Shown here in pieces: positions 1 to 18,732 of a stretch of DNA of 64,000 nt (the stretch's first letter is position 1; the number at the start of each line of letters is the position of its first letter). The DNA lies in NCBI GenBank assembly GCA_938003925.1, contig CALKWQ010000022.1, positions 90,278 through 154,277 on the forward strand, given 5' to 3'. Under the pieces are notes generated by a model. The model searched no databases and was not told the origin of the DNA. It was given only the letters and a program-made list of their open reading frames with translations. The DNA is from an uncultured bacterium (lineage in GTDB: Bacteria; Patescibacteriota; Patescibacteriia; Patescibacteriales; UBA12465). A program made the translations under genes and the position numbers.

Positions 1-1166
1 ATCTGCTCACTTTTATGCTCAAAAAACTCTGCCCAAGGAATATTACTGTTATACATTACTTTCAAAAAATTAAAATACACTTGTTTATCACCTGGGGCAA
101 TCAAATCAAATAACTTATTGAGTGTCTTGTTACTATTTAAAAAACCCTCAATGTCACCATGGTTTTTGAGTAAGTCATCCCAATCGGTTTTAATTGACTG
201 TGCTTCTTGCTGCAACTGATTCCAAAATACTTCTCTGTCTTTATTTAGTTCTTTTAACATTACCACACCCCTACGATGAGCCGGCAGATATCTGGATAAA
301 AATTCTTCAGTTAATATATAACCCTTAATACTTTGATAAGGCAGCTCTCCTGTTTTTAACAAGGCCTTAAACCTTTTGTGGTCTATTTGGCCATTTTTAT
401 CAATAAATTGCAACCAAGTGGAAAAATCATTTTGCTTAATATTATTATCGGCTATTTTTTTAAACCCCAAACGATCAGCTAAAGGAGTGTCTAGTAGCCA
501 AGACTTGCCAATTACCGCCGCTGCTTCTGGCTCCTTATCCAAAATATACTCCGCCACCACTCCCAAATCACTGCTAATTAATTCCGAGCCTAAATTTTTC
601 TCACCCGTGTTATAGAAATCTTCCACGTGAACCTCAACAAAATGATCAGCCTTAGAGAATCCATATTTTTCCAAATCCTGATACTTTTTGTCAGCGTCTC
701 TTTCAATACTGGTAATTTTATTAAAATTCAACACCTTAGTACTGCCCTTTCTGGCGTTACGTTCAGCCTCTTTTAAATCCTCCACCTCTAGATATTTTTT
801 AATATTATCTCTTTTTGCATCAATCAACTGAGATATTTTATCTACATCAAAACCGCTAGTCTCGTATAGATAGTCAACCTCTTGATAGAAGGCTTGTAAA
901 AATAAATCGATTTGGGGCTGATATTTATTAAAATTAAATTGTTCCAGATGGAATACGGGTCTTAAAATAATATTTTCGATTGGGCTAAAGTCCTTCATGG
1001 CTGCAGAAAATTTATAATCTCTCTTGTTTTTCTTGGTCGCCTGAAAGTTTTGCTCAGCATAAACTAGAGAAATTTTTGTAATCCTCTCAAAAAGCACAGT
1101 TTGCTGCTCCTGTTTATCCTCAGTCTCGATAAGACGACTAAGATTATTTAAGCCCTCAAACTTCAT
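1..1166 (-). CDS. hypothetical protein (3' end lies beyond the left window edge)
   Basis: Not in the ORF track because no stop lies in the window. There is a minus-strand ATG at 1166..1164 (MKFEGLNNLSRLIE...). I checked every in-frame triplet down to base 3 and found no stop (...FEHKSEQ at the edge). No family recognised. Confidence 0.6.
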   Translation of the reverse strand, partial: MKFEGLNNLSRLIETEDKQEQQTVLFERITKISLVYAEQNFQATKKNKRDYKFSAAMKDFSPIENIILRPVFHLEQFNFNKYQPQIDLFLQAFYQEVDYLYETSGFDVDKISQLIDAKRDNIKKYLEVEDLKEAERNARKGSTKVLNFNKITSIERDADKKYQDLEKYGFSKADHFVEVHVEDFYNTGEKNLGSELISSDLGVVAEYILDKEPEAAAVIGKSWLLDTPLADRLGFKKIADNNIKQNDFSTWLQFIDKNGQIDHKRFKALLKTGELPYQSIKGYILTEEFLSRYLPAHRRGVVMLKELNKDREVFWNQLQQEAQSIKTDWDDLLKNHGDIEGFLNSNKTLNKLFDLIAPGDKQVYFNFLKVMYNSNIPWAEFFEHKSEQ

Positions 1167-1304
1167 ATAATTTTAAAATTATCATTATACCTTAAGTTTA
1201 GCTGAAAAATATTAAAAAATGAAGCTGACATGTCCATGGCTATATATTTTTTAGGGAAATTAGCAATTGACGCCATGTTTTCGCTTAAAACATATAATAC
1301 TAAA

Positions 1305-1327
1305 AAACGGGCTTTTGGTGCCCGTTT
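1305..1327 (-). terminator. intrinsic terminator-like hairpin
   Basis: AAACGGGC / GCCCGTTT 8-bp stem with a 7-nt loop. The T-run is on the minus strand only (cccgtttttta). It sits between the TatC remnant and the start of the 1..1166 gene. Confidence 0.4.
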
Positions 1328-1458
1328 CTATGTTTGATTGAATTTGCCAACAAAATATAAGATCCTGTTTATGGAAGGTACCCATTTTCTTAGACACATT
1401 GTCCATGGGTCAATTGATATTGCCGACTGTACATTACAGGCGGCATTTTTAATTTAGT

Positions 1459-1719
1459 ATGTATTCGGGTGTTATCATAGTCTTTCAGATCCCTATCGTC
1501 ATTATTGGAGGAATCTCCCTGGGCATACTAAAAACAAAATTATTAGCCCTTAAACGTAAGTACATTTATGTGGGTTTAATGATTGCGCTGGCCATTATCA
1601 CTCCAACAACTGATTTATTTAGTCTGGCAATATTATTTATTCCCTGTGTTATTATTTTTGAAATCAGCCTCATTGTTGGTAAAGTCGTAGAAAAAATAAA
1701 TAAACAAAAAATTGAATAA
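1459..1719 (+). pseudogene. tatC: TatC C-terminal fragment (last two TM helices only)
   Basis: The 86-aa ORF ...KRKYIYVGLMIALAIITPTTDLFSLAILFIPCVIIFEISLIV resembles the conserved TatC TM5-TM6 region (RkyaivgafvvaaiiTPpDvfSq..lAiPl..LyEisi). There is an in-frame stop at 1450..1452 directly upstream and no ORF for the missing ~170 N-terminal residues. Confidence 0.45.
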
Positions 1720-1762
1720 AAATTTAGATTGCTTTACAACATAAATTTATCTAAAATTAAAA

Positions 1763-1792
1763 CAAAATCAGGCCATAATAGCCTGATTTTGT
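1763..1792. terminator. terminator hairpin after prx (repeat copy A)
   Basis: Perfect 12-bp stem ACAAAATCAGGC / GCCTGATTTTGT with a 7-nt loop and T-rich flanks on both strands. It lies 29 nt past the prx stop. The same stem recurs at 3313..3343. Confidence 0.7.
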
Positions 1793-1821
1793 ATTTTACC
1801 ACTATTAGCAGTGAGAATGAT

Positions 1822-2550
1822 TTAACTCTTAATATTCAACTCTTTTTCAATATCTTCTTTACTAATCTTTTTAGTGCAGAAAAACCAATCATAGCAATGC
1901 ATTTCATCTTTATTTTCCATTCTCTCTTTAGCAACACCACAAGAACCAGCCGTAGGTACAATCACCTCATCGCCCGGACGCCAATCAGCTGGAGTAGCAA
2001 TTGAAAACTTGTCGGCTGCCTGCATAGCAACTAAAGCTCTATATAGCTCATCAAAATTACGGCCTAAACTTAGAGGATAATAAATAATAGCCCTAATTAT
2101 TCCTTTAGGATCAATAAAGAAAACGGCACGTACTGCCTTAGTATTACTTTCTCCTGGCTGAATCATACCGTATTTCTTAGCAACCTCCATAGTAATATCC
2201 TCAATTAGAGGAAATTTAACCTCAATATCTTTTATGCCTTTATATTCAATCTTCTCCTTAATTGTTCTAAGCCAAGCAATATGACTATATAGACCGTCGA
2301 CTGATAAACCGACTAGTTTACAGTTAGCATCATTAAATTTTTGCTCCATGCTCGCAAAAGTCATAAACTCCGAAGTACAAACCGGAGTAAAATCAGCTGG
2401 GTGACTAAACAAAATAACCCAAGAATCTTTATAATCCTCAGGAAAATTAATTTCTCCCTGAGTAGTGACTGCCTTAAAAGTTGGTGCTTTGTCGCCTATT
2501 CTTGGCATCGCCACGATATTTTCTTGATTTGCAATAATTGCTCCATCCAT
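1822..2550 (-). CDS. peroxiredoxin, Prx6/1-Cys (archaeal-type) subfamily
   Basis: Contains WVILFSHPADFTPVCTSEF (peroxidatic Cys motif) and a C-terminal CGVAKERMENKDEMHC cysteine pair. The true start is probably MPRIGDKAPTF at 2508. Confidence 0.9.
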   Translation of the reverse strand: MDGAIIANQENIVAMPRIGDKAPTFKAVTTQGEINFPEDYKDSWVILFSHPADFTPVCTSEFMTFASMEQKFNDANCKLVGLSVDGLYSHIAWLRTIKEKIEYKGIKDIEVKFPLIEDITMEVAKKYGMIQPGESNTKAVRAVFFIDPKGIIRAIIYYPLSLGRNFDELYRALVAMQAADKFSIATPADWRPGDEVIVPTAGSCGVAKERMENKDEMHCYDWFFCTKKISKEDIEKELNIKS

Positions 2551-2572
2551 AAATTTAAAATTAATTATTAAA

Positions 2573-2848
2573 TTATTTCACAATTTTTATAGCTTTACCA
2601 TTTGTAAGAGCGTCAGCTATCTTTTTATAGGCCGAATAAAGGATTCTTTGATAAGTGCTAGGAGAGGTATTCATTGTTTTAGCAGCAGCTTGCTGATCCA
2701 GGTTACTTATATGCCGTAAACGATAAGACTCCATTTCCTCAATAGATAATTCAACGATTTCGAGATTTCTCATAGGCACCCCTTGGGGCTTAAAATAAGT
2801 TACCACCGGATTGAATGCTATTTTTCGACAAAGTCTTGGTCTAGGCAT
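2573..2848 (-). CDS. DUF134 (UPF0251) family DNA-binding protein
   Basis: MPRPRLCRKI...YFKPQGVP...EEMESYRLRHISNLDQQAAAKTMNTSPSTYQRIL matches the DUF134 pattern (MPRP..R.....FKP.G.......dE.EalRL.D...qeeAA..M.vSr.Tf.Ril). Confidence 0.8.
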   Translation of the reverse strand: MPRPRLCRKIAFNPVVTYFKPQGVPMRNLEIVELSIEEMESYRLRHISNLDQQAAAKTMNTSPSTYQRILYSAYKKIADALTNGKAIKIVK

Positions 2849-2943
2849 ATATATTGAAAATTATAGCAAATTTGCTATTATAACTCTATAAGAGAAGGCT
2901 CTCCGGCCCCTTTTTGTTAAGAGGCCGGTTCCCGTGCCTTCTT

Positions 2944-3186
2944 TTATTTTTGGCTTTTTAAAGCCTCTTTTTCTTTCTTAATCACTTCTAAGTCTGATAA
3001 CAGATCCTGTTCTTCTTCGTCTAAAACTTTTAACTGATCCTCTGGAGATAAAGAAGACTTGAGACCGCCCCTTCCCATTGTCCTTCGTCCACACCAAAAC
3101 AATCTCTCTCCGCCAGCACAACGACCCATTCTTCTGCCCGTTTTTGACCCTTGGCCCATTGGACCAGTTCCATCCATTCTTGGCAT
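2944..3186 (-). CDS. DUF5320 family protein
   Basis: MPRMDGTGPMGQGSKTGRRMGRCAG... followed by an acidic coiled-coil tail, typical of DUF5320, which commonly pairs with DUF134. I moved the start from the track position (3291) to the ATG at 3186. Confidence 0.7.
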   Translation of the reverse strand: MPRMDGTGPMGQGSKTGRRMGRCAGGERLFWCGRRTMGRGGLKSSLSPEDQLKVLDEEEQDLLSDLEVIKKEKEALKSQK

Positions 3187-3312
3187 AAATTTATTATTAC
3201 TATTTTTTATAACGACAGATCGACCTTTGCCCCTGCCTGTTATGAGTATATACCCATAACTATATTGAGTCAAACATACAAACCACGGCAATATATTTAA
3301 TCCAATATTAAA

Positions 3313-3343
3313 ACAAAATCAGGCCTTAAAAGCCTGATTTTGT
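3313..3343 (-). repeat. terminator hairpin, repeat copy B
   Basis: Same 12-bp stem as 1763..1792 (ACAAAATCAGGC/GCCTGATTTTGT) with loop cttaaaa. It shares the upstream flank aatattaaaacaaaa with copy C at 6446..6460. Confidence 0.6.
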
Positions 3344-3348
3344 GTTTT

Positions 3349-3385
3349 GCTCGGGGTCGTGGACGAAGTTCGAAATAGCGTGGCT
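3349..3385 (-). pseudogene. degenerate 3' fragment of tRNA-Gln (att-like direct repeat)
   Basis: gctcggggtcgtgga-cgaag-ttcgaa... aligns with the 3' acceptor/T-arm of the intact tRNA-Gln (gctcggggacatggattcgaacc, 6489..6511) in the same orientation, with a short insertion. It lacks the 5' half. Confidence 0.5.
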
Positions 3386-3401
3386 AAGATTAAATAAGAT
3401 T

Positions 3402-3532
3402 TTAACCCTTAATATTCAATTCCTTTTCAATATCTTACTTACTAATCTTTTTAATGCAGAAAAACCAATCATAACAATGCATTTCATTTTTACTCTCCAC
3501 TTTCTCTCTCTAACAAAACTACAAGAACCAGC
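3402..3532 (-). pseudogene. duplicated 3' fragment of the peroxiredoxin gene
   Basis: 3401..3500 matches 1821..1920 at about 90 of 100 bases (aligned by eye). Translation gives AGSCSFVRERKWRVK / EMHCYDWFFCIKKISK*DIEKELNIKG, compared with AGSCGVAKERMENKDEMHCYDWFFCTKKISKEDIEKELNIKS. There is one frameshift and one premature TAA. Confidence 0.8.
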
Positions 3533-3643
3533 TATTAACAAAACTTATATAATTAAAACCAAACTTAATGATAATAAATAATAAAAAGTACCTATTTTCT
3601 TTAATAATCTTCTTTCACTAAATAAGTAAAATTATTAATATAA

Positions 3644-3841
3644 CTACTTTTTCTTCCGCAATCTCATACTAATAATTGCTAAAATTAAAAATATTAAACC
3701 AAACCAAACATGGAGGTGAATAATTAATTCTCTAGAAGGTCCTTGACCTAAAATATAATTAACAAAAAGAGGAATTGATGTTAGTAATAAAATTATAAAA
3801 GTTGTTGTTCGAATTCTGTCAAGAATTTTATTATTAGCCAT
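3644..3841 (-). CDS. small membrane protein (2 predicted TM helices), hypothetical
   Basis: 65 aa with two hydrophobic stretches (TTFIILLLTSIPLFVNYIL and VWFGLIFLILAIISM) and a basic C-terminus. No family recognised. Confidence 0.4.
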   Translation of the reverse strand: MANNKILDRIRTTTFIILLLTSIPLFVNYILGQGPSRELIIHLHVWFGLIFLILAIISMRLRKKK

Positions 3842-3978
3842 AATAATTAATTATTTAAAGATATTTATTTATTAATTATAACATTTATTTTTTTAAAAGT
3901 CATTCTATAATAAAGATATTTGCTATTAACCTAATGATAATATATACTTAGATTATCTAACTATTATTTTAATAATAT

Positions 3979-4410
3979 ATGAAAGATATAGATGAGTTTG
4001 TCGATTTAATATTTGTAATAAACCGACTAACTAAAGAGGGGTTAGAAAATGAAAAAGGTTCGCCATCTTATATTCAGTTACAGACCTTATCATTTATATC
4101 CCGTCAAAAAAAACCAATTATAAAAAGCGTTGCTGAATATCTAAACATTACCGCGCCATCAGCTACTTTTTTGATAAATAATTTGATAAAACTAGAACTA
4201 GTTAATCGCTTACACAATACTCGAGACAAAAGAATGGTGCATTTAGTTATTAGTAAAAAGGGCAAAAAAGAGTTAGCAAAAAGTTTTTTAAGATCAAAAC
4301 AACACTTACATAAAAAATTATCCCTTTTATCAGCTAAAGAACGTCAAAGTTTTATTTTTATTTTGAAAAAAATTTCTTTATTATTAACAACTGATAAAAA
4401 TGAACATTAA
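3979..4410 (+). CDS. MarR family transcriptional regulator
   Basis: Winged-HTH pattern: LQTLSFISRQKKPIIKSVAEYLNITAPSATFLINNLIKLELVNRLHNTRDKRMVHLVISKKGKKEL. It overlaps the downstream permease by 11 nt. Confidence 0.8.
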   Translation: MKDIDEFVDLIFVINRLTKEGLENEKGSPSYIQLQTLSFISRQKKPIIKSVAEYLNITAPSATFLINNLIKLELVNRLHNTRDKRMVHLVISKKGKKELAKSFLRSKQHLHKKLSLLSAKERQSFIFILKKISLLLTTDKNEH

Positions 4411-5611
4411 AGCCGCTTTCTTTTTGGCTTACAAAACAATTGTTAGGGGCAGTAAAGGGACATTAATAATGACTATATTAATAATGACCCTAGCCTACGT
4501 AAATCTAATATTTATATCATCTATTTTTGGTGGTATTGTTGAGGCTATTAATGAACAATATATAGATAATTTATATGGCAATATAGTTATCACCCCAGCA
4601 AGTGATAAAATTTATATAGAAAATAAACAAACAAGCTCTATAAATCATATACCCGGCATAGTAGCTATTTCAGCTCACTATATAAATGATGCTTTAATTT
4701 CTTATGATGAGTATAAAGATGGTAATAACATACAACAAGGAAAATGGAAAATAAAATCTGTTAACGTTGAAGATGAAAAAAGAGTGACTGCAATTAGCGA
4801 TTCTATCATATCGGGCGAATATCTAGACGACAAAGATAGAGATAAAATAGTCATCGGAAAAGAAATAGCAGGTGGCCAGGGCGGGGATTTAGATTATCTT
4901 AGTTTAGGAGGTGTTCTTGTTGGCGATACAATAGATGTGAAATTTAGCAATAATATAAAAAGAACTTACACAATAAAGGGTATTTTTTCCACAAAAAATA
5001 ATCAAGCTGATCAAATGGCTTTTATTACCAGAAAAGAAATGGAATCAATCCTTGGAGTACATAATTTATCTTCAGAAATAATTATAAAAACAATTGAAAA
5101 AGGCCAGGAAGAACAATACATAGAGTCAATAAGACAATCTGGTTTTTACGATGAAGAGATAAGAACATGGGAACAATTAACCGGCTTTACTTCTAGTGCT
5201 AGTAAAAGTTTTATGATGATCAGTATTATTCTTGGTGCGATTGGAACGATAGTGGCGGGAATTACAATATTTATTATCATTTTTGTTAGTATCGTAAATA
5301 AAAGAAGACAAATTGGCATACTAAAAGCTATCGGCATGGAAGAAAGTACAATAATTTTATCATTTATTATGCAGGCTGTATTCTATGCTATCATTGGAAT
5401 CCTTTTGGGTATTAGTATAATTTTATTTGTCATCAGGCCATTTTTCGTAGACAATCCCTTAGACTTTCCGGTTGGATGGGTATCGTTAAAAATAACTTTT
5501 GACATAATTAAGATAAGTAATATTAGTCTTATGATAGCTGCTTTAATTGGTGGTTTTATTCCTGCTTTTAGAGGCACTAGAGAAAGTATTCTAGATGCGA
5601 TTTGGGGTTAA
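4400..5611 (+). CDS. ABC transporter permease, FtsX/MacB-like
   Basis: N-terminal TM helix, a large extracytoplasmic domain and a C-terminal FtsX-type 3-TM bundle (RRQIGILKAIGMEESTIILSFIMQAV...). Confidence 0.85.
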   Translation: MNIKAAFFLAYKTIVRGSKGTLIMTILIMTLAYVNLIFISSIFGGIVEAINEQYIDNLYGNIVITPASDKIYIENKQTSSINHIPGIVAISAHYINDALISYDEYKDGNNIQQGKWKIKSVNVEDEKRVTAISDSIISGEYLDDKDRDKIVIGKEIAGGQGGDLDYLSLGGVLVGDTIDVKFSNNIKRTYTIKGIFSTKNNQADQMAFITRKEMESILGVHNLSSEIIIKTIEKGQEEQYIESIRQSGFYDEEIRTWEQLTGFTSSASKSFMMISIILGAIGTIVAGITIFIIIFVSIVNKRRQIGILKAIGMEESTIILSFIMQAVFYAIIGILLGISIILFVIRPFFVDNPLDFPVGWVSLKITFDIIKISNISLMIAALIGGFIPAFRGTRESILDAIWG

Positions 5612-5628
5612 TTTTTAAAATAAAAAAA

Positions 5629-6303
5629 ATGATTATTGAAGTAAAAAAATTAAAAAAAACCTATGGCGGAAAAATTCCAACCCATGTTCTCAAGGGAGTT
5701 AGTTTCGAGGTTGAGAAGGGGGAATTTATTGCCTTGATGGGGCGTAGCGGCTCAGGCAAGTCCACCCTTCTGCATCAACTAGGCCTGCTTGATTCTCCGA
5801 GTTCGGGAGATATTATTATAGATGGAATAAGCACAATAAATTTTACACAAAAACAAAAAAATGAATTTCGTTTAAAAAAATTAGGGTATGTTTTTCAAGC
5901 TTATGCCCTATTACCAGAATTAACAGCTCTAGAATCAATCTATTTACCGCTAATGCTGTCTGGTGTGCCAAAATCTCAATATATTAAGAAGGCTTTAGAA
6001 ATGTTAGAAAAAGTTGGTCTCAGTGAACGAAGAAACCATTTACCAAAAGAAATGTCCGGTGGCGAACAGCAGCGAGTGGCTATTGCTAGAGCACTAATAA
6101 ATGAACCGGCTATTTTATTTGCAGATGAGCCAACGGCCAATCTAGATAGCGAATCATCGGAAACGGTTTTGAAATTATTTAAAAAATTAAATAAAGAAAT
6201 TGGACAAACTATTATTATGGTTACTCATGAGCCAGATGACAAGAAATATGTTGATAGGGTTATTTGGCTTAAAGATGGAACAATAACATCAGAAGGGATT
6301 TAA
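5629..6303 (+). CDS. ABC transporter ATP-binding protein (MacB/LolD-like)
   Basis: Walker A GRSGSGKST, signature LSGGEQQRVAIARAL, Walker B ILFADEPT. The track start at 5602 is TTG; I prefer the ATG at 5629 (MIIEVKKLKKTYG). Confidence 0.9.
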   Translation: MIIEVKKLKKTYGGKIPTHVLKGVSFEVEKGEFIALMGRSGSGKSTLLHQLGLLDSPSSGDIIIDGISTINFTQKQKNEFRLKKLGYVFQAYALLPELTALESIYLPLMLSGVPKSQYIKKALEMLEKVGLSERRNHLPKEMSGGEQQRVAIARALINEPAILFADEPTANLDSESSETVLKLFKKLNKEIGQTIIMVTHEPDDKKYVDRVIWLKDGTITSEGI

Positions 6304-6454
6304 GATCCTAAAATAGTAGAAATCGAAACAAACACAGGAACAGGATTCGAACCAATATCGACCAATAAAATCAAGTGTTTTCTGTAAAATGTCATAAATA
6401 TCCCAAAAAAGTTCGAACCGCTTTGGAACTTAAAATGTGTCTAATATTAAAACA

Positions 6455-6479
6455 AAAACAGGCTTATAAAACCTGTTTT
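6455..6479 (-). terminator. terminator hairpin after tRNA-Gln (repeat copy C)
   Basis: AAAACAGG / CCTGTTTT 8-bp stem with a 9-nt loop, followed on the minus strand by tgttttaatatt. It is related to the hairpins at 1763 and 3313. Confidence 0.55.
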
Positions 6480-6489
6480 CGTGCTTTAG

Positions 6490-6560
6490 CTCGGGGACAT
6501 GGATTCGAACCATGATTGATGGCTTCAAAGGCCACTGTCCTACCATTAGACGATCCCCGA
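6490..6560 (-). tRNA. tRNA-Gln (anticodon UUG)
   Basis: Folded manually: acceptor TCGGGGA/TCCCCGA (the U1-A72 pair typical of bacterial tRNA-Gln), D stem GTCT/GGAC, anticodon stem GTGGC/GCCAT with loop CTTTGAA, T arm CATGG-TTCGAAT-CCATG, discriminator G. 71 nt, no encoded CCA. Confidence 0.9.
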
Positions 6561-6620
6561 ATATAATTGTTTAACTAGCTTATCTTAATCAATTTAAGCC
6601 TAAACGTCAACTACTAATAT

Positions 6621-6646
6621 AAAAGACGCTTTTATCAACTAAAGCG
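6621..6646 (-). terminator. possible terminator after ftsX
   Basis: CGCTTT / AAAGCG 6-bp stem with an 8-nt loop, followed on the minus strand by tcttttatatt. Confidence 0.35.
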
Positions 6647-6659
6647 CCTGGACTAACAA

Positions 6660-7568
6660 TTAAACCCGAGCATATTTGCGCACAGCGAAGAAACTGGCCA
6701 ACAGAGTAATAATAAAAACAACAGCAAACTGGAGACCAAAAATAGGCCAGAAATTATACACAAAATAACTCAACAGATTAACATTATAGCCCGCTAAAAA
6801 TACCTCTAAATAGGGCTGGAATAGGGTTAAAAATGGGTAAAAAATAGCAATCATTACCATTACGCTCATTAAGGCATACAAGAAAGCAGAAAATAAGAAA
6901 GGCATATAAATAAAGAAATTGGAGGCCCCCACTAAACGCATAATCTCAATTTCTTTTTTATGAGTATAAACCGCTACCCTAATAGAATTATAAACAACCA
7001 ACAAGCTGGTAAGGATAAAAATAGCAATAATCACTGCACCGACTTCGTTAACGCGCTTAGTCACGCTCTGAATTTTGGTCACTACTGCCGTATTGTCACT
7101 AAAATCACGAGATTCAATAATATCTGAGTCCAACTGGCGCAAAGTATTTACTAAATTAGAAGTATTATCAAAATCAGCTGGCGTGATAGCCAGACTCGGT
7201 GATAAGGGGTTGTTGCCTAATTCACGCAAGGCTTGTAAGATTTCGTTATTTTCACGATATTTAGAACGAAAAGAGACCAGAGCGTCTTGACTAGAAATAT
7301 AAACTACTCCTTTAATTTCAGGTAACCCCGCCAAGCGATCACGTAGAGCTAAAATATCACTTTCTGCTGATGCCGGTTTTAAATACAGGCTAATATCTAT
7401 CTTCTCTTTGACTGCGTTGACAGCATTTTCGCTAACCACCCGTACCGTCAACAGAGTGTTGATAGAAAACAACGCTAGCAATAAGATGGTAATAGTGACG
7501 ATAGACAGCCAGATATTGCGCACAATATCCTGCAAGCTAAATTTAATGATGCGAAAAAAAGAAAGCAT
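6660..7568 (-). CDS. ftsX: cell division permease FtsX
   Basis: N-terminal TM helix, periplasmic domain and C-terminal FtsX 3-TM module (HKKEIEIMRLVGASNFFIYMPFLF). It lies directly downstream of ftsE. Confidence 0.9.
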   Translation of the reverse strand: MLSFFRIIKFSLQDIVRNIWLSIVTITILLLALFSINTLLTVRVVSENAVNAVKEKIDISLYLKPASAESDILALRDRLAGLPEIKGVVYISSQDALVSFRSKYRENNEILQALRELGNNPLSPSLAITPADFDNTSNLVNTLRQLDSDIIESRDFSDNTAVVTKIQSVTKRVNEVGAVIIAIFILTSLLVVYNSIRVAVYTHKKEIEIMRLVGASNFFIYMPFLFSAFLYALMSVMVMIAIFYPFLTLFQPYLEVFLAGYNVNLLSYFVYNFWPIFGLQFAVVFIITLLASFFAVRKYARV

Positions 7569-7578
7569 AAAAAATTAT

Positions 7579-8259
7579 TTAAAGCAGATATTTACCATGA
7601 GCCTGATCGCTCACAACAGCGCCTTTATCCATCGTAATAACACGACGATTCAAGCGATTAACAATTTCCTTGTTATGTGTCACTAAGATAACAGTAGTGC
7701 CGAATTTATTAATTCTAAGCAACAATTCAATAATCTCGTCAGCATTGATGGCGTCTAAATTACCGGTAGGCTCATCCGCCAAAAGAATACGGGGCTGATG
7801 AACCAGAGCTCTAGCGATAGCCGCTCGCTGCTGTTCACCACCGGACACTTCGTGTGGATATCTACCTTGCTTATCCTCTAAGCCCACTATCTTTAAAACA
7901 CTGGGCACAATTTTCTTGATTTTTGCCTGACTTGCTCCACAGACTTCTAAAGCAAAGGCTACGTTCTCACGTAAAGTCTTTTTGGGCAATAATTTAAAAT
8001 CTTGAAAGATAACTCCAATTTGCCGACGCAGATAAGGGACTTCGTACCTGCTTAAACGGGTAATATCCCAATCACCAATTACAACTTGACCTTCATCTGC
8101 CCGTTCTTCACCGATTAAAAGCTTAACCAAGGTAGTCTTGCCGGCTCCAGATTGTCCCACCACAGAAACAAACTCTCCCGCCTTGATGTGAAGATTCACA
8201 TCATTAAGCACGGGGTTGCGCTTAGAATAGCTTTTAGAAACATGCAACAAGGTAATCAT
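7579..8259 (-). CDS. ftsE: cell division ATP-binding protein FtsE
   Basis: Walker A GQSGAGKTT, signature VSGGEQQRAAIARAL, Walker B ILLADEPT. It is about 226 aa and paired with ftsX. Confidence 0.9.
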   Translation of the reverse strand: MITLLHVSKSYSKRNPVLNDVNLHIKAGEFVSVVGQSGAGKTTLVKLLIGEERADEGQVVIGDWDITRLSRYEVPYLRRQIGVIFQDFKLLPKKTLRENVAFALEVCGASQAKIKKIVPSVLKIVGLEDKQGRYPHEVSGGEQQRAAIARALVHQPRILLADEPTGNLDAINADEIIELLLRINKFGTTVILVTHNKEIVNRLNRRVITMDKGAVVSDQAHGKYLL

Positions 8260-8266
8260 ATGCTAA

Positions 8267-9832
8267 TTATTGAGCAAGTTGTTTTACGCCATAACGAATG
8301 AGTTGCTCATTATCTTTGAAATTATCTGCTTTGCTTTTGGCTCCAAAATTAACCACAATCAACGGGCCGGCAGCTGTTTCCACCCTAGTCATCAAACAAT
8401 AACCAGCCTCATCTAAATAACCGGTCTTGGAGCCGCTAATTTTATAAGCACCATTTAACAAAAGGCTGTTGGTGTTGCTGAGATTGTGCTTGACCTTCTT
8501 ATTGATCGTAGAAAAAGAGTAGCGGGCAGTAGTGCTAATTTTAACTAACAAAGGATGCTTAAAAAGTTCTTTTGTTATTATAGCATAATCGAGAGGAGAA
8601 CTCACATTTTCAGGCGACAAACCAGTGGGCTCTACGAACCTAGTGCCTGTTGCCCCCCAAGCTAACACCTGCTCATTCATTTTTTTAATAAACTCTGTTC
8701 TACTTAGACCGCTAACTCGCACCAGGCTTTCAACCGCGTTATTAGCCGAGCCAACTAAGGCGGCATATAACAAATTTTCTATCGTCATAGTCTCTCCTTC
8801 GGTGACGCGCAAACGAGCAGACTCCCAGGGCTCACAATATTCATAGTTATACTTCTCATCTTGAGTAGAATAAGCAACCACTTGGCTTAAGGTCGGTTTA
8901 GTATCTAAAAACACTCTAGCAGCCACTAATTTGGTTAAACTGGCCAGAGGCGCTGTAGAGCTTGCGTTCTTGTTATATAAAATTTTGCCGCTATCGGCTG
9001 CCATTACCACAGCTGAGCGTGAACTAAGTTCGGGTAAAGCTCCCGCTGGCTGTAGCTTAATTTGATCGTCGGGAGAAATTAATTTTTGTGGCTCAATTTT
9101 TACCTTAATCACGCCAGCTTTAGTAGAAGCAATTTTAGCAAAAGCCACTGCGTCCAAATCTACTACCCGTTCGGGATGTAATCGACGGTCAGGTCCGTAA
9201 TCATTAACCGTCACATTCACCGATTTGCCATTATCTAAGTTGGTAACCTTTAAAATAGTGCCGGCTTTAAAATCAGGTGAAGCAGTGAACAAGCCTCCCC
9301 TATGGCGATACCAGCTGGCCTGGCCCACAGTCATCAACTGATTAGTATACAACACGGCCACGCGCGCATAGGGTAAATGAATATCGGCACTGACAATCTT
9401 TTTATTGGGATCATCTACGGAGGGCAATGGTCGCCACTGTTTCCGACCACCATCATAGAAAAAAATCTGCTTATAGTAGTTATTGGTTTCGGAATAAGTT
9501 ATTTGCAACTTCAGTGGTTGAGTGCGATCGTAAGAGGCGCCTTTATCGGTAAAGTCAAACTGATAAACAGCGCTAAGAGGGCTGTAATTCCAAGGAAAAC
9601 TGAAAGCAGTGCCTAGATTGTCTAATTTTAAAGCAGTAGGTGATTTAATAGCTTTGGCCGTCGTATTAATCCTAAAAGCGTCTAACGTAGCCCCTTGAGC
9701 CAGGCCCGCCTGCCAAGCAGTAGTCACGCTAATTGGAGCCACTATCTCCTCTTGACCCTGAACAGGACCAGAAAAAGTTAATAATTGTACAATAAACGCC
9801 AGAGTTAAGAATATGGAAATTTTTTTAGACAT
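8267..9832 (-). CDS. secreted fusion protein: RlpA-like DPBB domain plus D-alanyl-D-alanine carboxypeptidase (peptidase S11/PBP5-like)
   Basis: Signal peptide MSKKISIFLTLAFIVQLLTFSGPVQG. RlpA-type DPBB segment QASWYRHRGGLFTASPDF...VTVNDYGPDRRLHPERVVDLD. S11 motifs SLTK (SxxK), SANN (SxN) and KTGY (KTG). The track ORF extends to 9997 only by reading antisense through the tRNA genes (MLYQLSYLG...), so I trimmed it to the ATG at 9832. Confidence 0.8.
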   Translation of the reverse strand: MSKKISIFLTLAFIVQLLTFSGPVQGQEEIVAPISVTTAWQAGLAQGATLDAFRINTTAKAIKSPTALKLDNLGTAFSFPWNYSPLSAVYQFDFTDKGASYDRTQPLKLQITYSETNNYYKQIFFYDGGRKQWRPLPSVDDPNKKIVSADIHLPYARVAVLYTNQLMTVGQASWYRHRGGLFTASPDFKAGTILKVTNLDNGKSVNVTVNDYGPDRRLHPERVVDLDAVAFAKIASTKAGVIKVKIEPQKLISPDDQIKLQPAGALPELSSRSAVVMAADSGKILYNKNASSTAPLASLTKLVAARVFLDTKPTLSQVVAYSTQDEKYNYEYCEPWESARLRVTEGETMTIENLLYAALVGSANNAVESLVRVSGLSRTEFIKKMNEQVLAWGATGTRFVEPTGLSPENVSSPLDYAIITKELFKHPLLVKISTTARYSFSTINKKVKHNLSNTNSLLLNGAYKISGSKTGYLDEAGYCLMTRVETAAGPLIVVNFGAKSKADNFKDNEQLIRYGVKQLAQ

Positions 9833-9890
9833 AAGATGATTAGTTAATTGACTAAGGTTGCAGCTTCTGCTTATAATATGAAAGATATCT

Positions 9891-9962
9891 GCGGGTGTCG
9901 TATAATGGTTATTATGCAAGCTTCCCAAGCTTGAGACGGCGGTCCGATTCCGCTCACCCGCT
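9891..9962 (+). tRNA. tRNA-Gly (anticodon CCC), non-canonical T-loop
   Basis: Acceptor GCGGGTG/CACCCGC, anticodon stem CAAGC/GCTTG with loop TTCCCAA, T arm GGCGG-TCCGATT-CCGCT, discriminator T, no CCA. The T-loop reads TCC where TTC (T54-Psi55-C56) is expected. Confidence 0.8.
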
Positions 9963-9970
9963 CTAATTCG

Positions 9971-10046
9971 GCCGAGATAGCTCAACTGGTAGAGCAACGG
10001 TATCGTAAACCGTAGGTTGTGGGTTCAAGTCCCATTCTCGGCTCCA
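9971..10046 (+). tRNA. tRNA-Thr (anticodon CGU)
   Basis: Acceptor GCCGAGA/TCTCGGC, D arm AGCTC..GAGC, anticodon stem ACGGT/ACCGT with loop ATCGTAA, T arm GTGGG-TTCAAGT-CCCAT, discriminator T and an encoded CCA. 76 nt. Confidence 0.9.
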
Positions 10047-10050
10047 ACAA

Positions 10051-10087
10051 TAAATAAAGCCGGCCACAGTGCCGGCTTGTTTATTTT
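10051..10087. terminator. bidirectional intrinsic terminator
   Basis: AAGCCGGC / GCCGGCTT 8-bp GC-rich stem with a 6-nt loop, flanked by aataaataa and gtttatttt. It lies between the convergent tRNA pair (+) and the FtsB-like gene (-). Confidence 0.75.
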
Positions 10088-10114
10088 CCGTCAGGCCGGC
10101 CAGGATTAAAATTA

Positions 10115-10537
10115 TCAATTGGCAAAATATTGCCACCATTTACGCCAATTAGCCACTGAGACTTTAGGTTCTGCCACTGGTTGAACTGACCCGAAAGCTT
10201 CACCTTGGATAACGGCAACGGTTTCTCCTGGACGCTTTAAGCCCATATTTAAACGGGCCTGCTCTTCTAAGGATTGGTCTGATTGTAAATAGTCAATCAT
10301 CTCCTTCAAATCTTGATTCTTGGCCTCAAACTCACTAATCTCCTGTTGAATATCAGCAATTTCTCGCTCAATAATACGCTTACGACTATAATTCTTGGCT
10401 AATGGCACCAAAATGAGCAATAAAAAAAGTAAAGCAATAATTGCAAGTATTCGCGGATTAGCTAACCAACGACTAAAAAAATCTGATTTAACTCGTTGTT
10501 GCTGTTTAAAATTAGAGACCGGTTTTGCTTTTGCCAT
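10115..10537 (-). CDS. septum formation initiator (FtsB/DivIC family)
   Basis: Single TM helix (ILAIIALLFLLLILVPL) followed by a coiled coil and ...SLEEQARLNMGLKRPGETVAVI, the DivIC/FtsB family signature. Confidence 0.7.
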   Translation of the reverse strand: MAKAKPVSNFKQQQRVKSDFFSRWLANPRILAIIALLFLLLILVPLAKNYSRKRIIEREIADIQQEISEFEAKNQDLKEMIDYLQSDQSLEEQARLNMGLKRPGETVAVIQGEAFGSVQPVAEPKVSVANWRKWWQYFAN

Positions 10538-10614
10538 AAATGATGCTAACCAAAAAAATATCTACACCCATCATAACAAAATTCTACAGAAAGAGACAGC
10601 TGTTGTTCTTAAAC

Positions 10615-12195
10615 TTAAGCACGTGATTTGGGTGTCACCCAAAAACCCATATATTTACCACGCAATAATCGCCACTGGGCGTCCAAACAAGGAATAGAGC
10701 CAAATAAAATAATAGTTACAGGCACAAAAATCCACTCCAACACCATGCGCACATTTTTAAAAGCGGTATATTTTTTAGGACGCTTGGGCAATAACAAAGC
10801 TGAAACTACCGCCGATAAAACTAGACCAACCATGGCTATATTCATCAAAGTCTGAGAAATTGCTGGTAAATTACCAGATAGCACAGTACTGTTAAAACGT
10901 TCTCCCCCTAATAGCATAGGCATCCAGCCAATCACCGCGATAATTAAGGCATTAGTAGCCCAAGAATGAAAACCGTAAATTTGTGTGGCAATATGACTCA
11001 CCAATTTACCCCGATCAATGCGGTGCCAATGTTTCACCGTATTAAACATCAAATAGGGCACATTTTCCGCTCCCCAAGCCCAGCGTCGTTGCTGCTTATA
11101 TAAACTCCTAGCCGTCTGCCAGAAATTACGGTCAAAAGTAATATCCATAGATACTGGAAAATAGAGCGGTTCCACCCGATAATCACCTTGATAATGTAAT
11201 AAGCAATGCCAGAAAATTCGTGAGTCCTCACTCACCATATTAGTGGACCAAAAACCAATATCAACTAAAGCCCGCCAAGTCATAGAATGAGACGAGTAGG
11301 TTACGAGTTGCTCTTCTCTAATTTGCATCATCATTTGCCAAAAGGTATTAGACGAGGCGGCTACGCGCGAAAAGAAAGGCGCTTCCCACAGATTATTATG
11401 ATACACGGGAATCGGCTGATAGCTGGCGCGATAAGGCGACGAAACGGTCAAAAATTTGTAGGTCAGAGCAAAAAAATAACCAGGACGCACCATAGTATCA
11501 ATATCAAATACACTTACCAAAATATTGTCGTAATCAAAATTCTCTGTATCCAAAACTTCTCGTTGTACCTGTTTGGCCGCCCAAGCTTGATTAGCCCCCT
11601 TGCCTTTCAACTCGCCAGCGATGCCATCTGGATGAAAAGTAATAACCAGGCGACCAAAACGATCACGGAATCGTGTTTGAATCAATTGAGCCCGCTCGCG
11701 AGCCGATTGACCAGCGCGCTCTTCCATTGCCACCACCACCAACATCTGCGCCGGAGGAAAACCGTCTTGCAACAAAGATTCCAAAGCGCTAGCGATAATT
11801 TCAACGCTCTCATTATAATTCGGCAAGATAATCAATTGCCTTACATCCTGCCAAACCTTACCTTGTCTCGCTAGACAATCTGCAACAATAGCTGGATCAG
11901 AAAAATCCGCTCTACTTAAACGCTCACAGCGCTCACGCCAGTCAACGGCTGCATTTTTCTTTAATTTGCGATAAGCAGCCACCAAATAAAGAGCTAGGTA
12001 AATCACTAACAAGAGCCAATAAACATCAAAAGCAATAATAAAAAAGGCTACCCAAACCGGTTGCAGATACGACATCACCAACAAAACAATCAGGGTAAGA
12101 AAAGATAGGGCTCCGGGTAAAATTTCAAAAAAACGATAAAGACGCCGGTCCTTACCGCTCAAATCAGTAGCCTTACTTACTTTAAGATAATCCAT
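10615..12195 (-). CDS. membrane-embedded family-2 glycosyltransferase, processive (cellulose/chitin-synthase-like) type
   Basis: ILPNYNES, VFDIDT, VSEDSRIFW and QQRRWAWG (the Q-x-x-R-W motif of processive GT2 enzymes), flanked by multiple TM helices. I moved the start to the ATG at 12195, 1 nt after the upstream stop. Confidence 0.75.
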   Translation of the reverse strand: MDYLKVSKATDLSGKDRRLYRFFEILPGALSFLTLIVLLVMSYLQPVWVAFFIIAFDVYWLLLVIYLALYLVAAYRKLKKNAAVDWRERCERLSRADFSDPAIVADCLARQGKVWQDVRQLIILPNYNESVEIIASALESLLQDGFPPAQMLVVVAMEERAGQSARERAQLIQTRFRDRFGRLVITFHPDGIAGELKGKGANQAWAAKQVQREVLDTENFDYDNILVSVFDIDTMVRPGYFFALTYKFLTVSSPYRASYQPIPVYHNNLWEAPFFSRVAASSNTFWQMMMQIREEQLVTYSSHSMTWRALVDIGFWSTNMVSEDSRIFWHCLLHYQGDYRVEPLYFPVSMDITFDRNFWQTARSLYKQQRRWAWGAENVPYLMFNTVKHWHRIDRGKLVSHIATQIYGFHSWATNALIIAVIGWMPMLLGGERFNSTVLSGNLPAISQTLMNIAMVGLVLSAVVSALLLPKRPKKYTAFKNVRMVLEWIFVPVTIILFGSIPCLDAQWRLLRGKYMGFWVTPKSRA

Positions 12196-12196
12196 A

Positions 12197-12772
12197 TTAA
12201 ATATTAAAACCGCGACGGCGGATTTCAAAAAAACAACGAGCGCAAGCCAGCACATCCACCATCGCGTTATGAGCTTCGGCAAAGTCGCGATTAAACAAAT
12301 AGCGGTGGAGCTCGGCTAAATTTGGCCACTTATAACCGCCCCGCCCATTACTGATACGACAAATATCAGCACCAGCCTTCATGGTGCATATTTTTTTAGA
12401 TGAAGCTAAATCATTAGCAATCAGAAATCTATAAAACTCACAGCCGATAATTTTATCATCAAAATCAATATTGTGGCCGACTAAAGCCTCTGCACGAGAG
12501 ATGTGACGGGCAAACTCGGTTAGCACCGTTAAAGCGTCTTTACCTTCAGCTACAGCCTGTTCGTGGCTAATGCGATGGATACGGGTTGCCTCTTCCGGAA
12601 CTACAAAGCCATCAGGCTTAATAATATAATCGTAACGATCCCAGGCTTTACCATCTTTATCAAACCAAGCCCAAGACAACTGGACTAGACGAGGCCAATT
12701 CTCTGTATCGGTAATCGGCGCCTTATAACTCTTAGGCAAGCCAGTGGTTTCCGTATCAAAAACTAAATACAT
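12197..12772 (-). CDS. DnaQ-like 3'-5' exonuclease (DEDDh)
   Basis: Exo I LVFDTETTG, Exo II VGHNIDFDDKII, Exo III HNAMVDVLA. Confidence 0.85.
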   Translation of the reverse strand: MYLVFDTETTGLPKSYKAPITDTENWPRLVQLSWAWFDKDGKAWDRYDYIIKPDGFVVPEEATRIHRISHEQAVAEGKDALTVLTEFARHISRAEALVGHNIDFDDKIIGCEFYRFLIANDLASSKKICTMKAGADICRISNGRGGYKWPNLAELHRYLFNRDFAEAHNAMVDVLACARCFFEIRRRGFNI

Positions 12773-12778
12773 AAAAAA

Positions 12779-14752: not shown

Positions 14753-14774
14753 AAATTAAATAATAAAGCGCTGT

Positions 14775-15062
14775 TTACAAAGCTAAACCGCTACCTAAAG
14801 TCTGCAATAGCTGCTGATAATAATCACGGATTAAAGGCGGCAAGTAAATTACACCGATAATTAAGGGTATAATAATTAATATGAGTTTTATCCAGCCGAA
14901 CAAACGCTGCCAAGCTACGTAGGTATTGATATGTTTAACCATGGCCTGAATTTCTTTAGTCATGGCTAAATTAGCCCGTAATAAAGCAGCCAGATCTTCC
15001 TTGTTTTCAGCCTGAATATCATCAACTTCTACAGAAGTCTGCAAAGGGGTCTGATTATCCAT
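14775..15062 (-). CDS. hypothetical C-terminally membrane-anchored protein
   Basis: 95 aa from the ATG at 15062 (4 nt after the nrdG stop). It has an acidic/coiled N-terminus and one TM helix (WIKLILIIIPLIIGVIYL). Confidence 0.5.
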   Translation of the reverse strand: MDNQTPLQTSVEVDDIQAENKEDLAALLRANLAMTKEIQAMVKHINTYVAWQRLFGWIKLILIIIPLIIGVIYLPPLIRDYYQQLLQTLGSGLAL

Positions 15063-15066
15063 ATAA

Positions 15067-15801: not shown

Positions 15802-15870
15802 ATAGGTGAGCCTCCAGGAGCCGCCGGGATATCACAACGGCCCTGTCCCCGCACCCCTTGATTAATTATT

Positions 15871-16014
15871 TTACTCAGAACAAGCAACCTTGAAAGTCTT
15901 ACGATCTTTATACTCAGAAGCCTTGCCCGGATTAAAGCTTTTAACTGGAGTTAACCAACCGACGACGCGGCTGTAAACAATGCATTCCTGACGTTGAGTA
16001 GTAATGGGGCTCAT
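15871..16014 (-). CDS. stand-alone glycyl-radical segment of class III RNR (47 aa)
   Basis: Below the track size cut-off. My translation is MSPITTQRQECIVYSRVVGWLTPVKSFNPGKASEYKDRKTFKVACSE. VYSRVVGW...FNPGK matches the NrdD C-terminal glycyl-radical motif (E. coli RRVCGYLG..FNAGK). An in-frame stop lies at 16044..16042 upstream. Confidence 0.65.
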   Translation of the reverse strand: MSPITTQRQECIVYSRVVGWLTPVKSFNPGKASEYKDRKTFKVACSE

Positions 16015-16087
16015 ATTAATTAATATTAGGTTGAAGGGCGATTAAGCGATGGATTCAACCGCTCAAAGCCAACTCCCCCTTAAATAT

Positions 16088-16116
16088 ATTATAAAATAAA
16101 TTTACCTAGAAAACAA
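16088..16116 (-). promoter_or_regulatory. promoter-like element inside the nrdD / glycyl-radical ORF gap
   Basis: Minus strand TTGTTT-17 nt-TATAAT. The region is AT-rich, so a chance occurrence is possible. Confidence 0.3.
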
Positions 16117-16117
16117 A

Positions 16118-18717: not shown

Positions 18718-18732
18718 AAAAAAGCTTTAAAA

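Follow-up and report, generated by a model that had tools for sequence, protein, structure and literature searches.

What occupies the AT-rich DNA that follows the tRNA-Gln(UUG) gene in the genome of an uncultured patescibacterium, and how did it come to be there? The question is raised by a stretch of 64,000 nucleotides (GenBank assembly GCA_938003925.1, contig CALKWQ010000022.1, positions 90,278 to 154,277 of the forward strand), referred to here as the window, in which an original prediction, made from the letters alone, had recognised a decayed genomic islet carrying a regulator and an efflux module. The window was compared with loci or contigs of its relatives, which are labelled L001 to L118. 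The part of the prediction stating that foreign, AT-rich DNA had been inserted at the 3′ end of tRNA-Gln and had partly decayed was supported by this comparison, but the idea of a single islet was not. The region is probably the tRNA-proximal part of an array of horizontally mobile gene cassettes, built by repeated insertion at the tRNA-Gln 3′ end and now partly decayed. Because the window holds one full copy and two truncated copies of a repeated unit (U), the best reading is an array, as a variant of the additive islands that target tRNA genes, rather than one islet.

The variable region behind tRNA-Gln

The tRNA-Gln gene was found to be intact, as predicted, by both ARAGORN and Rfam (64.9 bits), and its 3′ end, ...CCCCGAGC, serves as the point of insertion and anchors the array. 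Using the FtsX protein as a query, 54 loci were obtained from metagenome-assembled genomes (MAGs) of Patescibacteria (Falkowbacteria/Parcubacteria-like), and the gene order FtsE-FtsX-tRNA-Gln(UUG) was kept in about 45 of them; the sequence 3′ of the tRNA was not conserved. None of the relatives that had an FtsX 78-88% identical to that of the window and a readable downstream sequence carried the ABC, MarR, DUF5320 or DUF134 genes of the window 3′ of tRNA-Gln, and the peroxiredoxin gene (prx) was present in only one of them (L009), about 7 kb downstream of the tRNA. A conserved far flank (c5), which begins with a peptidase U32 gene, lay at distances from the tRNA that ranged from 1.5 kb (L012) to 8.7 kb (L009). 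A contig of the window's own strain, reached via the permease gene (L118), extends 5.6 kb further to the left than the window; on it c5 is about 11.5 kb from the tRNA, and no more repeat units are present beyond the most distal one in the window (copy A, below). The variable region of this strain therefore measures about 11.5 kb up to the first syntenic gene, with some 5 kb of it past the left end of the window, and a TfoX_N gene is present within it.

The composition of the region was also distinctive. The GC content is 0.298 for 3349..6303 and 0.325 for 1..6489, compared with 0.42 for 8260..64000, where the lowest value of any window of equal size is 0.383, so that the AT-richness suspected for the cassette and for everything to its left was borne out. 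GC content falls by 8-12 points after the tRNA in several of the relatives too. The predicted lack of an integrase was likewise confirmed, as none is encoded in the window.

The repeated unit and its copies in the window

The unit U is about 215 nt long and comprises the 3′ end of tRNA-Gln or a fragment resembling a tRNA 3′ end, a terminator hairpin, and a spacer with two GGTTCGAA motifs. As read in L009, it runs from the tRNA 3′ end or fragment, ending ...GAGC, through the terminator hairpin and TTTTAATATTAGACACATTTTAAGTTCCAAAGCGGTTCGAAC to a degenerate tRNA-Gln-like stretch ending ...TATTGGTTCGAATCC. When a profile built from six units was used to search the window with nhmmer, matches were obtained at 6304..6518 (E = 2.5e-59), 3300..3374 (E = 2.9e-14) and 1730..1797 (E = 7.6e-7), which represent the full copy (C) and the two truncated copies (B and A). 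The anchor, the copies of U and the tRNA-like fragment are located as follows:

6490..6560, minus strand: intact tRNA-Gln(UUG), with the 3′ end ...CCCCGAGC (ARAGORN; Rfam tRNA)
6304..6489, minus strand: U copy C, full length, identified by nhmmer, by alignment with 43 other distinct units and by a terminator scan; it consists of the hairpin (6452..6482), the spacer TTTTAATATTAGACACATTTTAAG, motif 1 GGTTCGAAC (~6411..6420), a degenerate tRNA-Gln-like stretch and motif 2 GGTTCGAATCC (6343..6353)
3349..3395, minus strand: cassette 3′-end element ('type 2 fragment', TTAGCCACGCTATTTCGAACTTCGTCCACGACCCCGAGC), which mimics the 3′ half of tRNA-Gln
3291..3348, minus strand: U copy B, truncated, which retains the hairpin (3313..3343) and the beginning of the spacer but has lost both GGTTCGAA motifs; it begins cassette 2
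1718..1798, minus strand: U copy A, truncated, with the hairpin (1762..1792) and part of the spacer left and no tRNA-like fragment before it

The relationship between the copies was also evident when the first 8 kb of the window were compared with the whole of it. The segment 3301..3363 matched 6440..6503 (81% identity over 64 nt, E = 4e-9); 3291..3532 matched 1741..1950 (76% over 242 nt, E = 4e-40), and copy A matched 6406..6488 (75%, E = 2e-7). Read in the sense of the tRNA, the order is tRNA-Gln, hairpin and flank at copy C, prx 3′ remnant, tRNA-like fragment and hairpin at copy B, and intact prx (1822..2550), 21 nt, hairpin and flank at copy A. The octamer GCTCGGGG is found at just two sites in the 64 kb, 3349 and 6489. 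The hairpins of copies C and B, each of 14 pairs followed by a T-run, were the top terminator-like sites of the region, in agreement with the prediction of a terminator after the tRNA and a second copy of it.

The hairpin folds in 43 of the 44 distinct full units, and at least four different stem sequences with compensating changes are represented among them, as expected for a working terminator. The layout of U resembles the terminator-promoter region upstream of a true tRNA. The two sequences that had been read as T-arm debris (6343..6353 and 6411..6420) are real, but they are not debris, as both are conserved GGTTCGAA motifs of U. In the same way, the terminator within the repeat, which had been noted as something that a simple att duplication does not explain, turns out to belong to the ~215-nt unit that begins every cassette. 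An Rfam search of 1..12000 at E <= 10 matched three tRNAs only, leaving U and the fragment unmatched. The sequence immediately after the tRNA-Gln of the window is 85-89% identical to units of L009, L012 and L035, where the FtsX of L035 is merely 60% identical to that of the window; L009 and L035 hold four copies of U each. A full U stands at the junction homologous to copy B in L110, and before the DUF5320 gene in L086.

Two further observations concern these motifs. Over the whole window, with 26065 as the position noted, the hexamer TTCGAA occurs only six times, where about 20 occurrences would be expected from base composition; the tRNA, U or the fragment accounts for four of these. A short variant of the unit consists of the hairpin, GTGTATATTTTGGTTCGAAT(T/C)CTTG and a promoter, with a single GGTTCGAA motif (L112, ~2080..2160, minus strand; L041, just after tRNA-Gln).

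The tRNA-like fragment at the cassette end

The sequence at 3349..3385 had been taken for a degenerate duplicate of the 3′ end of the resident tRNA. It is indeed present and in the same orientation, and extends to about 3395, but it is the conserved end of a cassette and probably not a duplicate of this tRNA. The end element (3349..3395) is 94% identical to L009 12368..12415, and that of L112-L115 is 92.6% identical to 3346..3399 of the window; compared with the resident tRNA, it is only about 70% identical, with a 5-nt insertion, and the exact match is limited to ...CCCCGAGC. Since the element is closer to the fragments of other genomes than to the resident tRNA, it is probably not a decayed local copy. 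The distance from the TTCGAA-like motif to the GAGC end was 20 nt in 30 of 35 fragments, which fall into at least four diverged sequence types, compared with 15 nt in all nine true tRNA-Gln genes. That the spacing is constant across sequence types argues that the fragment is a constrained site carried by the cassette rather than a decaying tRNA copy. The ~45 nt before GAGC fall into a few conserved types, of which the TTAGCCACGCTATTTCGAACTTCGTCCACGACCCCGAGC type of the window is the commonest. Distal homology between different contexts stops right after ...GAGC, and the hairpins past this point are unrelated. For annotation, the 'tRNA fragments' seen here are functional-looking cassette ends and not random debris.

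A crossover in the T-loop, the classical sublocation used by tyrosine integrases, was considered and rejected for the common cassettes, as their TTCGAA-to-GAGC sequence is cassette-specific and not host-specific, and such a crossover would disrupt the tRNA.

The same cassettes in distant hosts

Cassette 1 of the window consists of U (6304..6489), an ABC transporter ATPase, a MacB-type permease and a MarR regulator, all antisense to the array, a small membrane gene, a prx remnant, and the end element (3349..3395). Its genes are:

5629..6303, plus strand (antisense to the array): ABC transporter ATPase, 224 amino acids (Pfam ABC_tran, PF00005, E = 3.5e-34)
4400..5611, plus strand: MacB-type permease, 403 amino acids (Pfam MacB_PCD, PF12704, and FtsX, PF02687)
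3979..4410, plus strand: MarR-family regulator (Pfam MarR, E = 3.4e-7)
3644..3841, minus strand: small membrane protein, 65 amino acids (weak DUF4405 match, below the cut-off)
3400..3532, minus strand: prx 3′-end remnant, 76% identical to the prx 3′ end (within the match of 3291..3532 to 1741..1950)

The strongest comparison was provided by L110, the host of which belongs to a different lineage and has a different tRNA-Gln sequence, with FtsX and FtsE only 66% and 79% identical to those of the window. Cassette 1 in this contig is 92.8% identical at the DNA level over 2.9 kb, prx remnant and fragment included, and its proteins are 92-98% identical (ATPase 97.8%, small membrane protein 95.4%, MarR 91.6%). 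The counterpart of the prx remnant in L110 is called as a 67-amino-acid 1-cysPrx_C open reading frame (ORF); the remnant is a relic of a prx cassette that was fused into cassette 1. Past the fragment the two contigs part, DUF5320-DUF134-prx following in the window and ArsR-thioredoxin-DsbD with further genes in L110. Because they diverge right after the fragment, copy B marks a true cassette boundary. In L112-L115, three genes of cassette 1 (85-95% amino-acid identity; ATPase 95.4%, MarR 85.3%) are found between a full U and a matching fragment; neither the small membrane gene nor the prx remnant is part of this version of the cassette, which is located inside arrays of defence genes (CBASS, restriction-modification).

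The counter-case named with the original prediction was that of the cassette lying elsewhere without repeats. Permease homologues of 90-97% identity are located in other arrays, and every one of these copies has the repeats, but a homologue of 79% identity, on a 675-kb contig, lies in an ordinary chromosomal context without U.

The prx gene gave a second example. A protein 96% identical to that of the window is encoded in L074, in an internal position (U-prx-fragment), and in L095, where it forms the first cassette (tRNA-Gln-U-prx) in a host with an FtsX 57% identical to that of the window. L074 and L095 hardly differ in the second half of U, the promoter and prx. In other arrays prx is a single-gene cassette; in the window it is fused behind DUF134. 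The same cassette, ends included, is thus shared by distantly related hosts and stands at differing ranks of the array.

Arrays in other Patescibacteria

An exact-pattern scan for U in metagenome contigs found 52 further loci; no U pattern was found in the viral contigs of IMG/VR. The architecture is present behind both tRNA-Gln(UUG) and tRNA-Gln(CUG) in dozens of contigs from Patescibacteria, with U directly 3′ of the former in about 10 loci and of the latter in about seven. Up to five units were seen on a contig, and adjacent units were co-oriented in all 37 pairs. The spacing of units ranged from 209 to 8623 nt (median ~1.4 kb), gene-bearing cassettes measuring 744-8623 nt. Between units, 66 ORFs were in the sense orientation and 13 antisense, the latter mostly in a few large intervals. 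A typical cassette is laid out as a terminator hairpin, U, its own promoter (-35/-10-like boxes follow U) and one to three genes, mostly one or two, and a 45-nt tRNA-3′-like end element finishing ...GAGC. The cargo includes genes for efflux, NUDIX, DHH/DHHA2, GNAT, methyltransferases, an antiporter-like membrane protein, peroxiredoxin, ArsR-thioredoxin-DsbD, glutathione peroxidase and glyoxalase, as well as reverse transcriptase, CBASS (SMODS) and restriction-modification genes. No description of such arrays in the candidate phyla radiation (CPR) or Patescibacteria was found in the literature searched, the coverage of which was incomplete and is no proof of absence; the array type is recurrent and would seem to be undescribed.

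Patescibacteria have very small genomes, and gene exchange in them is little understood. The data point to a recurrent, sequence-defined route of gene gain, in which small cassettes cross genus-level lineages and pile up behind tRNA-Gln, and the arrays are probably one of the principal means by which accessory genes enter these tiny genomes.

Several arrays were of interest for their contents. Those with the ABC cassette in L112 (4881..11928), L113 (3994..10901) and L115 (3836..7653) also hold defence genes, namely CBASS-like SMODS/AGS_C with DUF2130, a LexA-like protein and components of type I and type III restriction-modification systems, with an rve transposase nearby. Reverse transcriptase cassettes (RVT_1, E = 4.8e-24) with partner ORFs of 217 and ~105 amino acids were found in L076 (98..2443), L097 (10873..13215) and L079 (2753..6798), and may represent a module resembling a retron, a diversity-generating retroelement or an abortive infection (Abi) system.

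In some loci the cassette slot directly after the tRNA-Gln terminator is filled by a GC-rich non-coding element of ~175 nt that folds well (z = -4.3). It was found in L110 (10089..10265 and 4087..4263, identical to each other), L108 (2201..2377), L074 (1253..1417), L007 (11116..11283), L028 (11100..11251) and L025 (11089..11245). As judged by eye, its inner hairpins appear to have undergone compensatory changes between copies, and the final 12-17 nt of the element reproduce the resident tRNA-Gln 3′ end, host by host. Rfam recognised no family in the L110 element apart from tRNA. It could be an RNA with a defined structure, or else a minimal integrative element whose crossover lies at another point; for this element, given its host-specific last 12-17 nt, a T-loop crossover is possible.

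A model for insertion and a candidate recombinase

In the mechanism that we propose, a circular cassette would recombine, via the junction between its ...GAGC end and its hairpin, with the tRNA-Gln end ...CCCCGAGC. The tRNA would be kept intact and would be given the cassette's own terminator, and this supply of a terminator by the inserted cassette would account for the presence of a terminator in the repeat. The most recent cassette would lie beside the tRNA, and older ones would be pushed distally, lose their motifs and become fixed. Copies B and A of the window would then represent the aged state, B being without both GGTTCGAA motifs and A without the fragment as well. With less confidence, we suggest that the enzyme may be a large serine recombinase encoded by larger members of the arrays that also encode a replication initiator (Rep), and that it could act in trans on the small, integrase-less cassettes.

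The recombinase came to light as a 531-amino-acid ORF that lies directly against the 3′ end of tRNA-Gln in both L005 and L011 and has the domains of a large serine recombinase (Resolvase, Recombinase and Zn_ribbon_recom). Homologues are encoded in L097 and L027 within intervals of 8.4 kb and 6 kb, respectively, that are bounded exactly like cassettes, and each of these elements pairs the recombinase with a rolling-circle replication initiator (PF23343). The L097 element matches the integrase family phrog_95 (E = 3e-87), and its Rep also matches phrog_3419; no relatives of the L097 recombinase were found among viral contigs. The attB and attP half-sites of serine integrases are known to differ by 5 bp in the position of the zinc-ribbon motif (PMC3783163). 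The 5-bp difference in motif spacing between the tRNA and the fragment matches this published attB/attP shift (PMC3783163), in the left half-site only.

In L005 (11074..11300) and L011 (6503..6730), the region encoding the recombinase C-terminus, which is antisense and adjoins the tRNA, holds two palindromic GGTTCGAACC or similar motifs in a U-like layout. These two motifs are suggestive of an origin of U from, or an overlap with, the 3′ end of a recombinase gene.

These elements invite a broader proposal, in which an integron-like capture of genes based on serine recombination would operate throughout the phylum: the recombinase of rolling-circle elements would insert mini-cassettes equipped with promoter and terminator in trans at both tRNA-Gln genes, the ~215-nt unit would be a portable attachment site, and the arrays would be where these reduced genomes chiefly keep their accessory, stress and defence genes. 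We put this forward tentatively, as a possibility that we would at present rather doubt than accept. If a trans-acting serine recombinase were confirmed, the system would be an analogue of the integron that works by another chemistry, and a candidate tool for inserting DNA at specific sites.

Origin of the array: alternatives considered

A number of observations weigh against an array built by site-specific insertion at the tRNA, or against the enzyme proposed for it. No homologue of the serine recombinase is encoded in the 64-kb window, no integrase lies between 1 and 6490, and most arrays lack a physically linked recombinase. Inspection by eye of the sequence right of GAGC showed no TTCGAA-like partner where a mirrored copy would lie, the next GGTTCGAAC being ~70 nt away; a canonical site for a serine integrase cannot be drawn without such a symmetric partner. 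On the left, the point where cassette-specific identity ends is not constant: it lies at the hairpin for cassette 1 in L110, after motif 1 for prx and after motif 2 for the DHH cassette. Homologous recombination or gene conversion between copies of U would account for this variation no less well than a crossover at a fixed point; we read it as a probable sign of later exchange among U copies. Genes have also been reshuffled at gene boundaries without any U in between. In L012 and L071, conserved genes come after tRNA-U and an end element is lacking, so that U may be native there. Neither an excised circle nor an empty site was observed.

Some of these points are what would be expected if the cassettes were exchanged purely by homologous recombination, with U (~190 nt, showing 85-90% identity from copy to copy and from species to species) and the end element serving as portable homology arms for RecA-dependent crossovers: left breakpoints that vary within U, mosaicism at the level of genes with no U in between, the lack of a recombinase in the window and in most array contigs, and perhaps the TfoX_N gene in the variable region. 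The right boundary, however, is sharp, lying exactly at ...GAGC with unrelated hairpins past it, and the 20-nt spacing is constant across types of end element too diverged to act as homology arms. Two different tRNA-Gln genes serve as anchors, the 37 unit pairs are all co-oriented, and the elements with a serine recombinase and Rep share the cassette ends. We consider this unlikely as the full explanation, although homologous recombination could be a source of secondary reshuffling. Under another alternative, one islet would have been left by a classical tRNA-targeting tyrosine integrase since lost, with the intact tRNA and a decayed direct repeat of its 3′ end as the outcome. The intact tRNA at one end, the tRNA-3′-like sequence in the same orientation at the other, the low GC content and the missing integrase all suit such an islet, yet it is improbable given that the fragment is 92-94% identical to those of other species but differs from the resident tRNA by a 5-nt insertion and shares only ~70% identity with it, that the repeat takes in the terminator and ~190 nt more, and that the window has three units and other contigs up to five. 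Nor did any tyrosine recombinase turn up among the array genes examined, in a screen that was not exhaustive (about 10 ORFs were scanned directly and the others by precomputed Pfam labels).

An origin without mobility would have a tandem duplication of tRNA-Gln and its terminator decay to U-like repeats that were kept as terminator/promoter modules or as RNA, the genes between them being lineage-specific. The degenerate, full-length tRNA-Gln-like stretch in U, its resemblance to the terminator-promoter region of a real tRNA, and a hairpin with the compensatory changes of a working terminator could be accounted for in this way. The identity of cassettes between hosts, 92-98% at the amino-acid level compared with 57-79% for flanking core genes, contradicts it unless it is an artefact of binning; one cassette occurs at different ranks and beside different neighbours, the GC deficit amounts to 12 points, and U has no Rfam match, and we regard a purely local origin as highly improbable. 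A true integron, with an IntI tyrosine recombinase, an attI site and promoterless cassettes bounded by attC, would share with these arrays the compact, co-oriented cassettes of mostly one or two genes, the structured repeat between them and the stacking from a single anchor. We give this next to no credence, for there is no integrase gene adjoining the anchor, upstream of which lie FtsEX, the peptidase S11 protein and tRNA-Gly/Thr, and the repeat consists of a perfect terminator hairpin, its T-run and tRNA-like sequence, not of an attC site with R''/L''-L'/R' boxes; the cassettes have their own promoters, and the associated recombinases are of the serine type.

Comparison with known systems

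Among described systems, the tycheposons and tRNA islands of Prochlorococcus come closest. In these streamlined genomes elements are integrated at tRNA 3′ ends, successive integrations displace older elements inward, and the islands are strewn with partial tRNAs and degenerate remnants; a minority of tycheposons have large serine recombinases, many have replication genes, and their cargo is adaptive or defence-related (bioRxiv 10.1101/2020.12.28.424599). The arrays of Patescibacteria share the (here probable) serial integration at a tRNA 3′ end, the partial tRNAs and remnants, and the presence of some serine recombinases, and the tycheposon-type combination of integrase, replication module and cargo is found in the 8.4-kb and 6-kb elements of L097 and L027, but not in the cassettes of the window. 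They differ in that most units are 0.7-2.5 kb long, with one or two genes and neither an integrase nor a replication module, and in that each cassette begins with a conserved sequence of ~190 nt (terminator and two GGTTCGAA motifs) and ends in a conserved tRNA mimic with a 5-nt insertion, not in an exact partial tRNA. A single tRNA species is used (Gln, both isoacceptors), and the host phylum is a different one.

Additive flexible genomic islands, such as those of Alteromonas, are similar in being a hot spot next to a tRNA, with differing sets of cassettes between conserved flanks; we know of no conserved ~215-nt unit between their cassettes, and to our knowledge integrases or integrons are usually in place. 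Compared with a classical tRNA-targeting island, the locus has the intact tRNA, the atypical composition and the absence from close relatives, but not the integrase within the element. In integrons, an ordered, co-oriented stack of small cassettes grows from a single anchor, with a structured repeat at each boundary. In our model of the Patescibacteria array the newest cassette would similarly adjoin the anchor; the differences are that no IntI is linked, that the anchor is a tRNA 3′ end and not attI, that the repeat is not attC, that cassettes have their own promoter and terminator, and that the candidate enzyme is of the serine type. Likeness to the systems of large serine integrases lies in the TTCGAA motif, whose distance from the presumed crossover is 5 bp shorter in the tRNA than in the fragment, in the few shared bases (CGAGC) at the junction, and in the occurrence of recombinases with Resolvase, Recombinase and Zn_ribbon domains in the arrays; unlike in those systems, only the left half-site is recognisable, no symmetric right half-site is visible, and a recombination directionality factor did not come to light. 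In streptococci, integrase-less segments with att sites, mobilisable in cis, accumulate in tandem beside an autonomous element, the integrase of which can move them. Those are few, large segments with exact att repeats, whereas here long arrays of mini-cassettes share a tRNA-derived unit.

Assembly breaks at the tRNA-Gln locus

Contigs of several independent assemblies stop at the tRNA-Gln 3′ end (L001, L013, L016 and L042) or inside the gene (L002 and L003), and L118 ends at a point corresponding to 6518 of the window. Strain polymorphism was considered as the cause of these ends and was rejected, as two Logan contigs from one sample share the last 29-30 nt of the tRNA (k-1). Because they overlap in this way, the breaks are put down to a repeated 30-mer and represent a repeat-induced branch of the assembly graph. 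Thus, the repeated tRNA end and U cause assemblies, and probably also MAG bins, to fragment at this locus; U both explains the frequent breaks at this tRNA and provides a searchable marker of the flexible genome in MAGs.

Other genes of the window

To judge by the domains of its proteins, cassette 1 most likely encodes a MacB-type exporter under the control of MarR: the permease has the MacB periplasmic core and a C-terminal FtsX domain, and the ABC ATPase is separate. The ABC exporter and MarR regulator that had been predicted were thus recovered by Pfam, and the predicted small membrane protein is there too. The similarity between the ABC ATPase gene (6043..6228) and FtsE (7675..7857), which is inverted and amounts to 68% at the nucleotide level, reflects the ordinary conservation of ABC ATPase motifs and is not a repeat of the element.

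Cassette 2 consists of DUF5320-DUF134-prx and is followed by more variable genes. The features to the left of copy B are:

2944..3187, minus strand: DUF5320 protein (Pfam DUF5320), with the likely start ATG at 3187 (MPRMDGTGP...), the ORF finder running on to TTG at 3291
2573..2848, minus strand: DUF134 protein (Pfam DUF134, E = 3.6e-18)
1822..2550, minus strand: intact 1-Cys peroxiredoxin, prx (Pfam AhpC-TSA and 1-cysPrx_C)
1459..1719, plus strand (antisense to the array): TatC C-terminal remnant (positions 152-208 of the 208 of the Pfam TatC profile only)
1..1189, minus strand: 5′ part of a gene of 413 amino acids, function unassigned, which continues off the left end of the window

The DUF5320 gene is called as 80 amino acids in L118. 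The order U, DUF5320, DUF134 was also found in L086 and L094, where the DUF134 protein is 74.7% identical to that of the window. The reading frames upstream of the TatC remnant (1200..1719) are broken, so that this is a TatC pseudogene. A homologue of the 413-amino-acid protein, with 41% identity, is encoded by a U-flanked cassette behind tRNA-Gln(CUG) in L080.

On the other side, the neighbourhood of the anchor includes the genes for FtsX, FtsE, a peptidase S11 protein and DivIC, as well as tRNA-Gly/Thr. Here the ORF finder gave an ORF of 576 amino acids (8267..9997) that crosses tRNA-Gly and ends within tRNA-Thr (9891..10046), and its N-terminal part is therefore an artefact; the gene called for 8267..9997 on the matching contig encodes 521 amino acids (DPBB_1 and Peptidase_S11).

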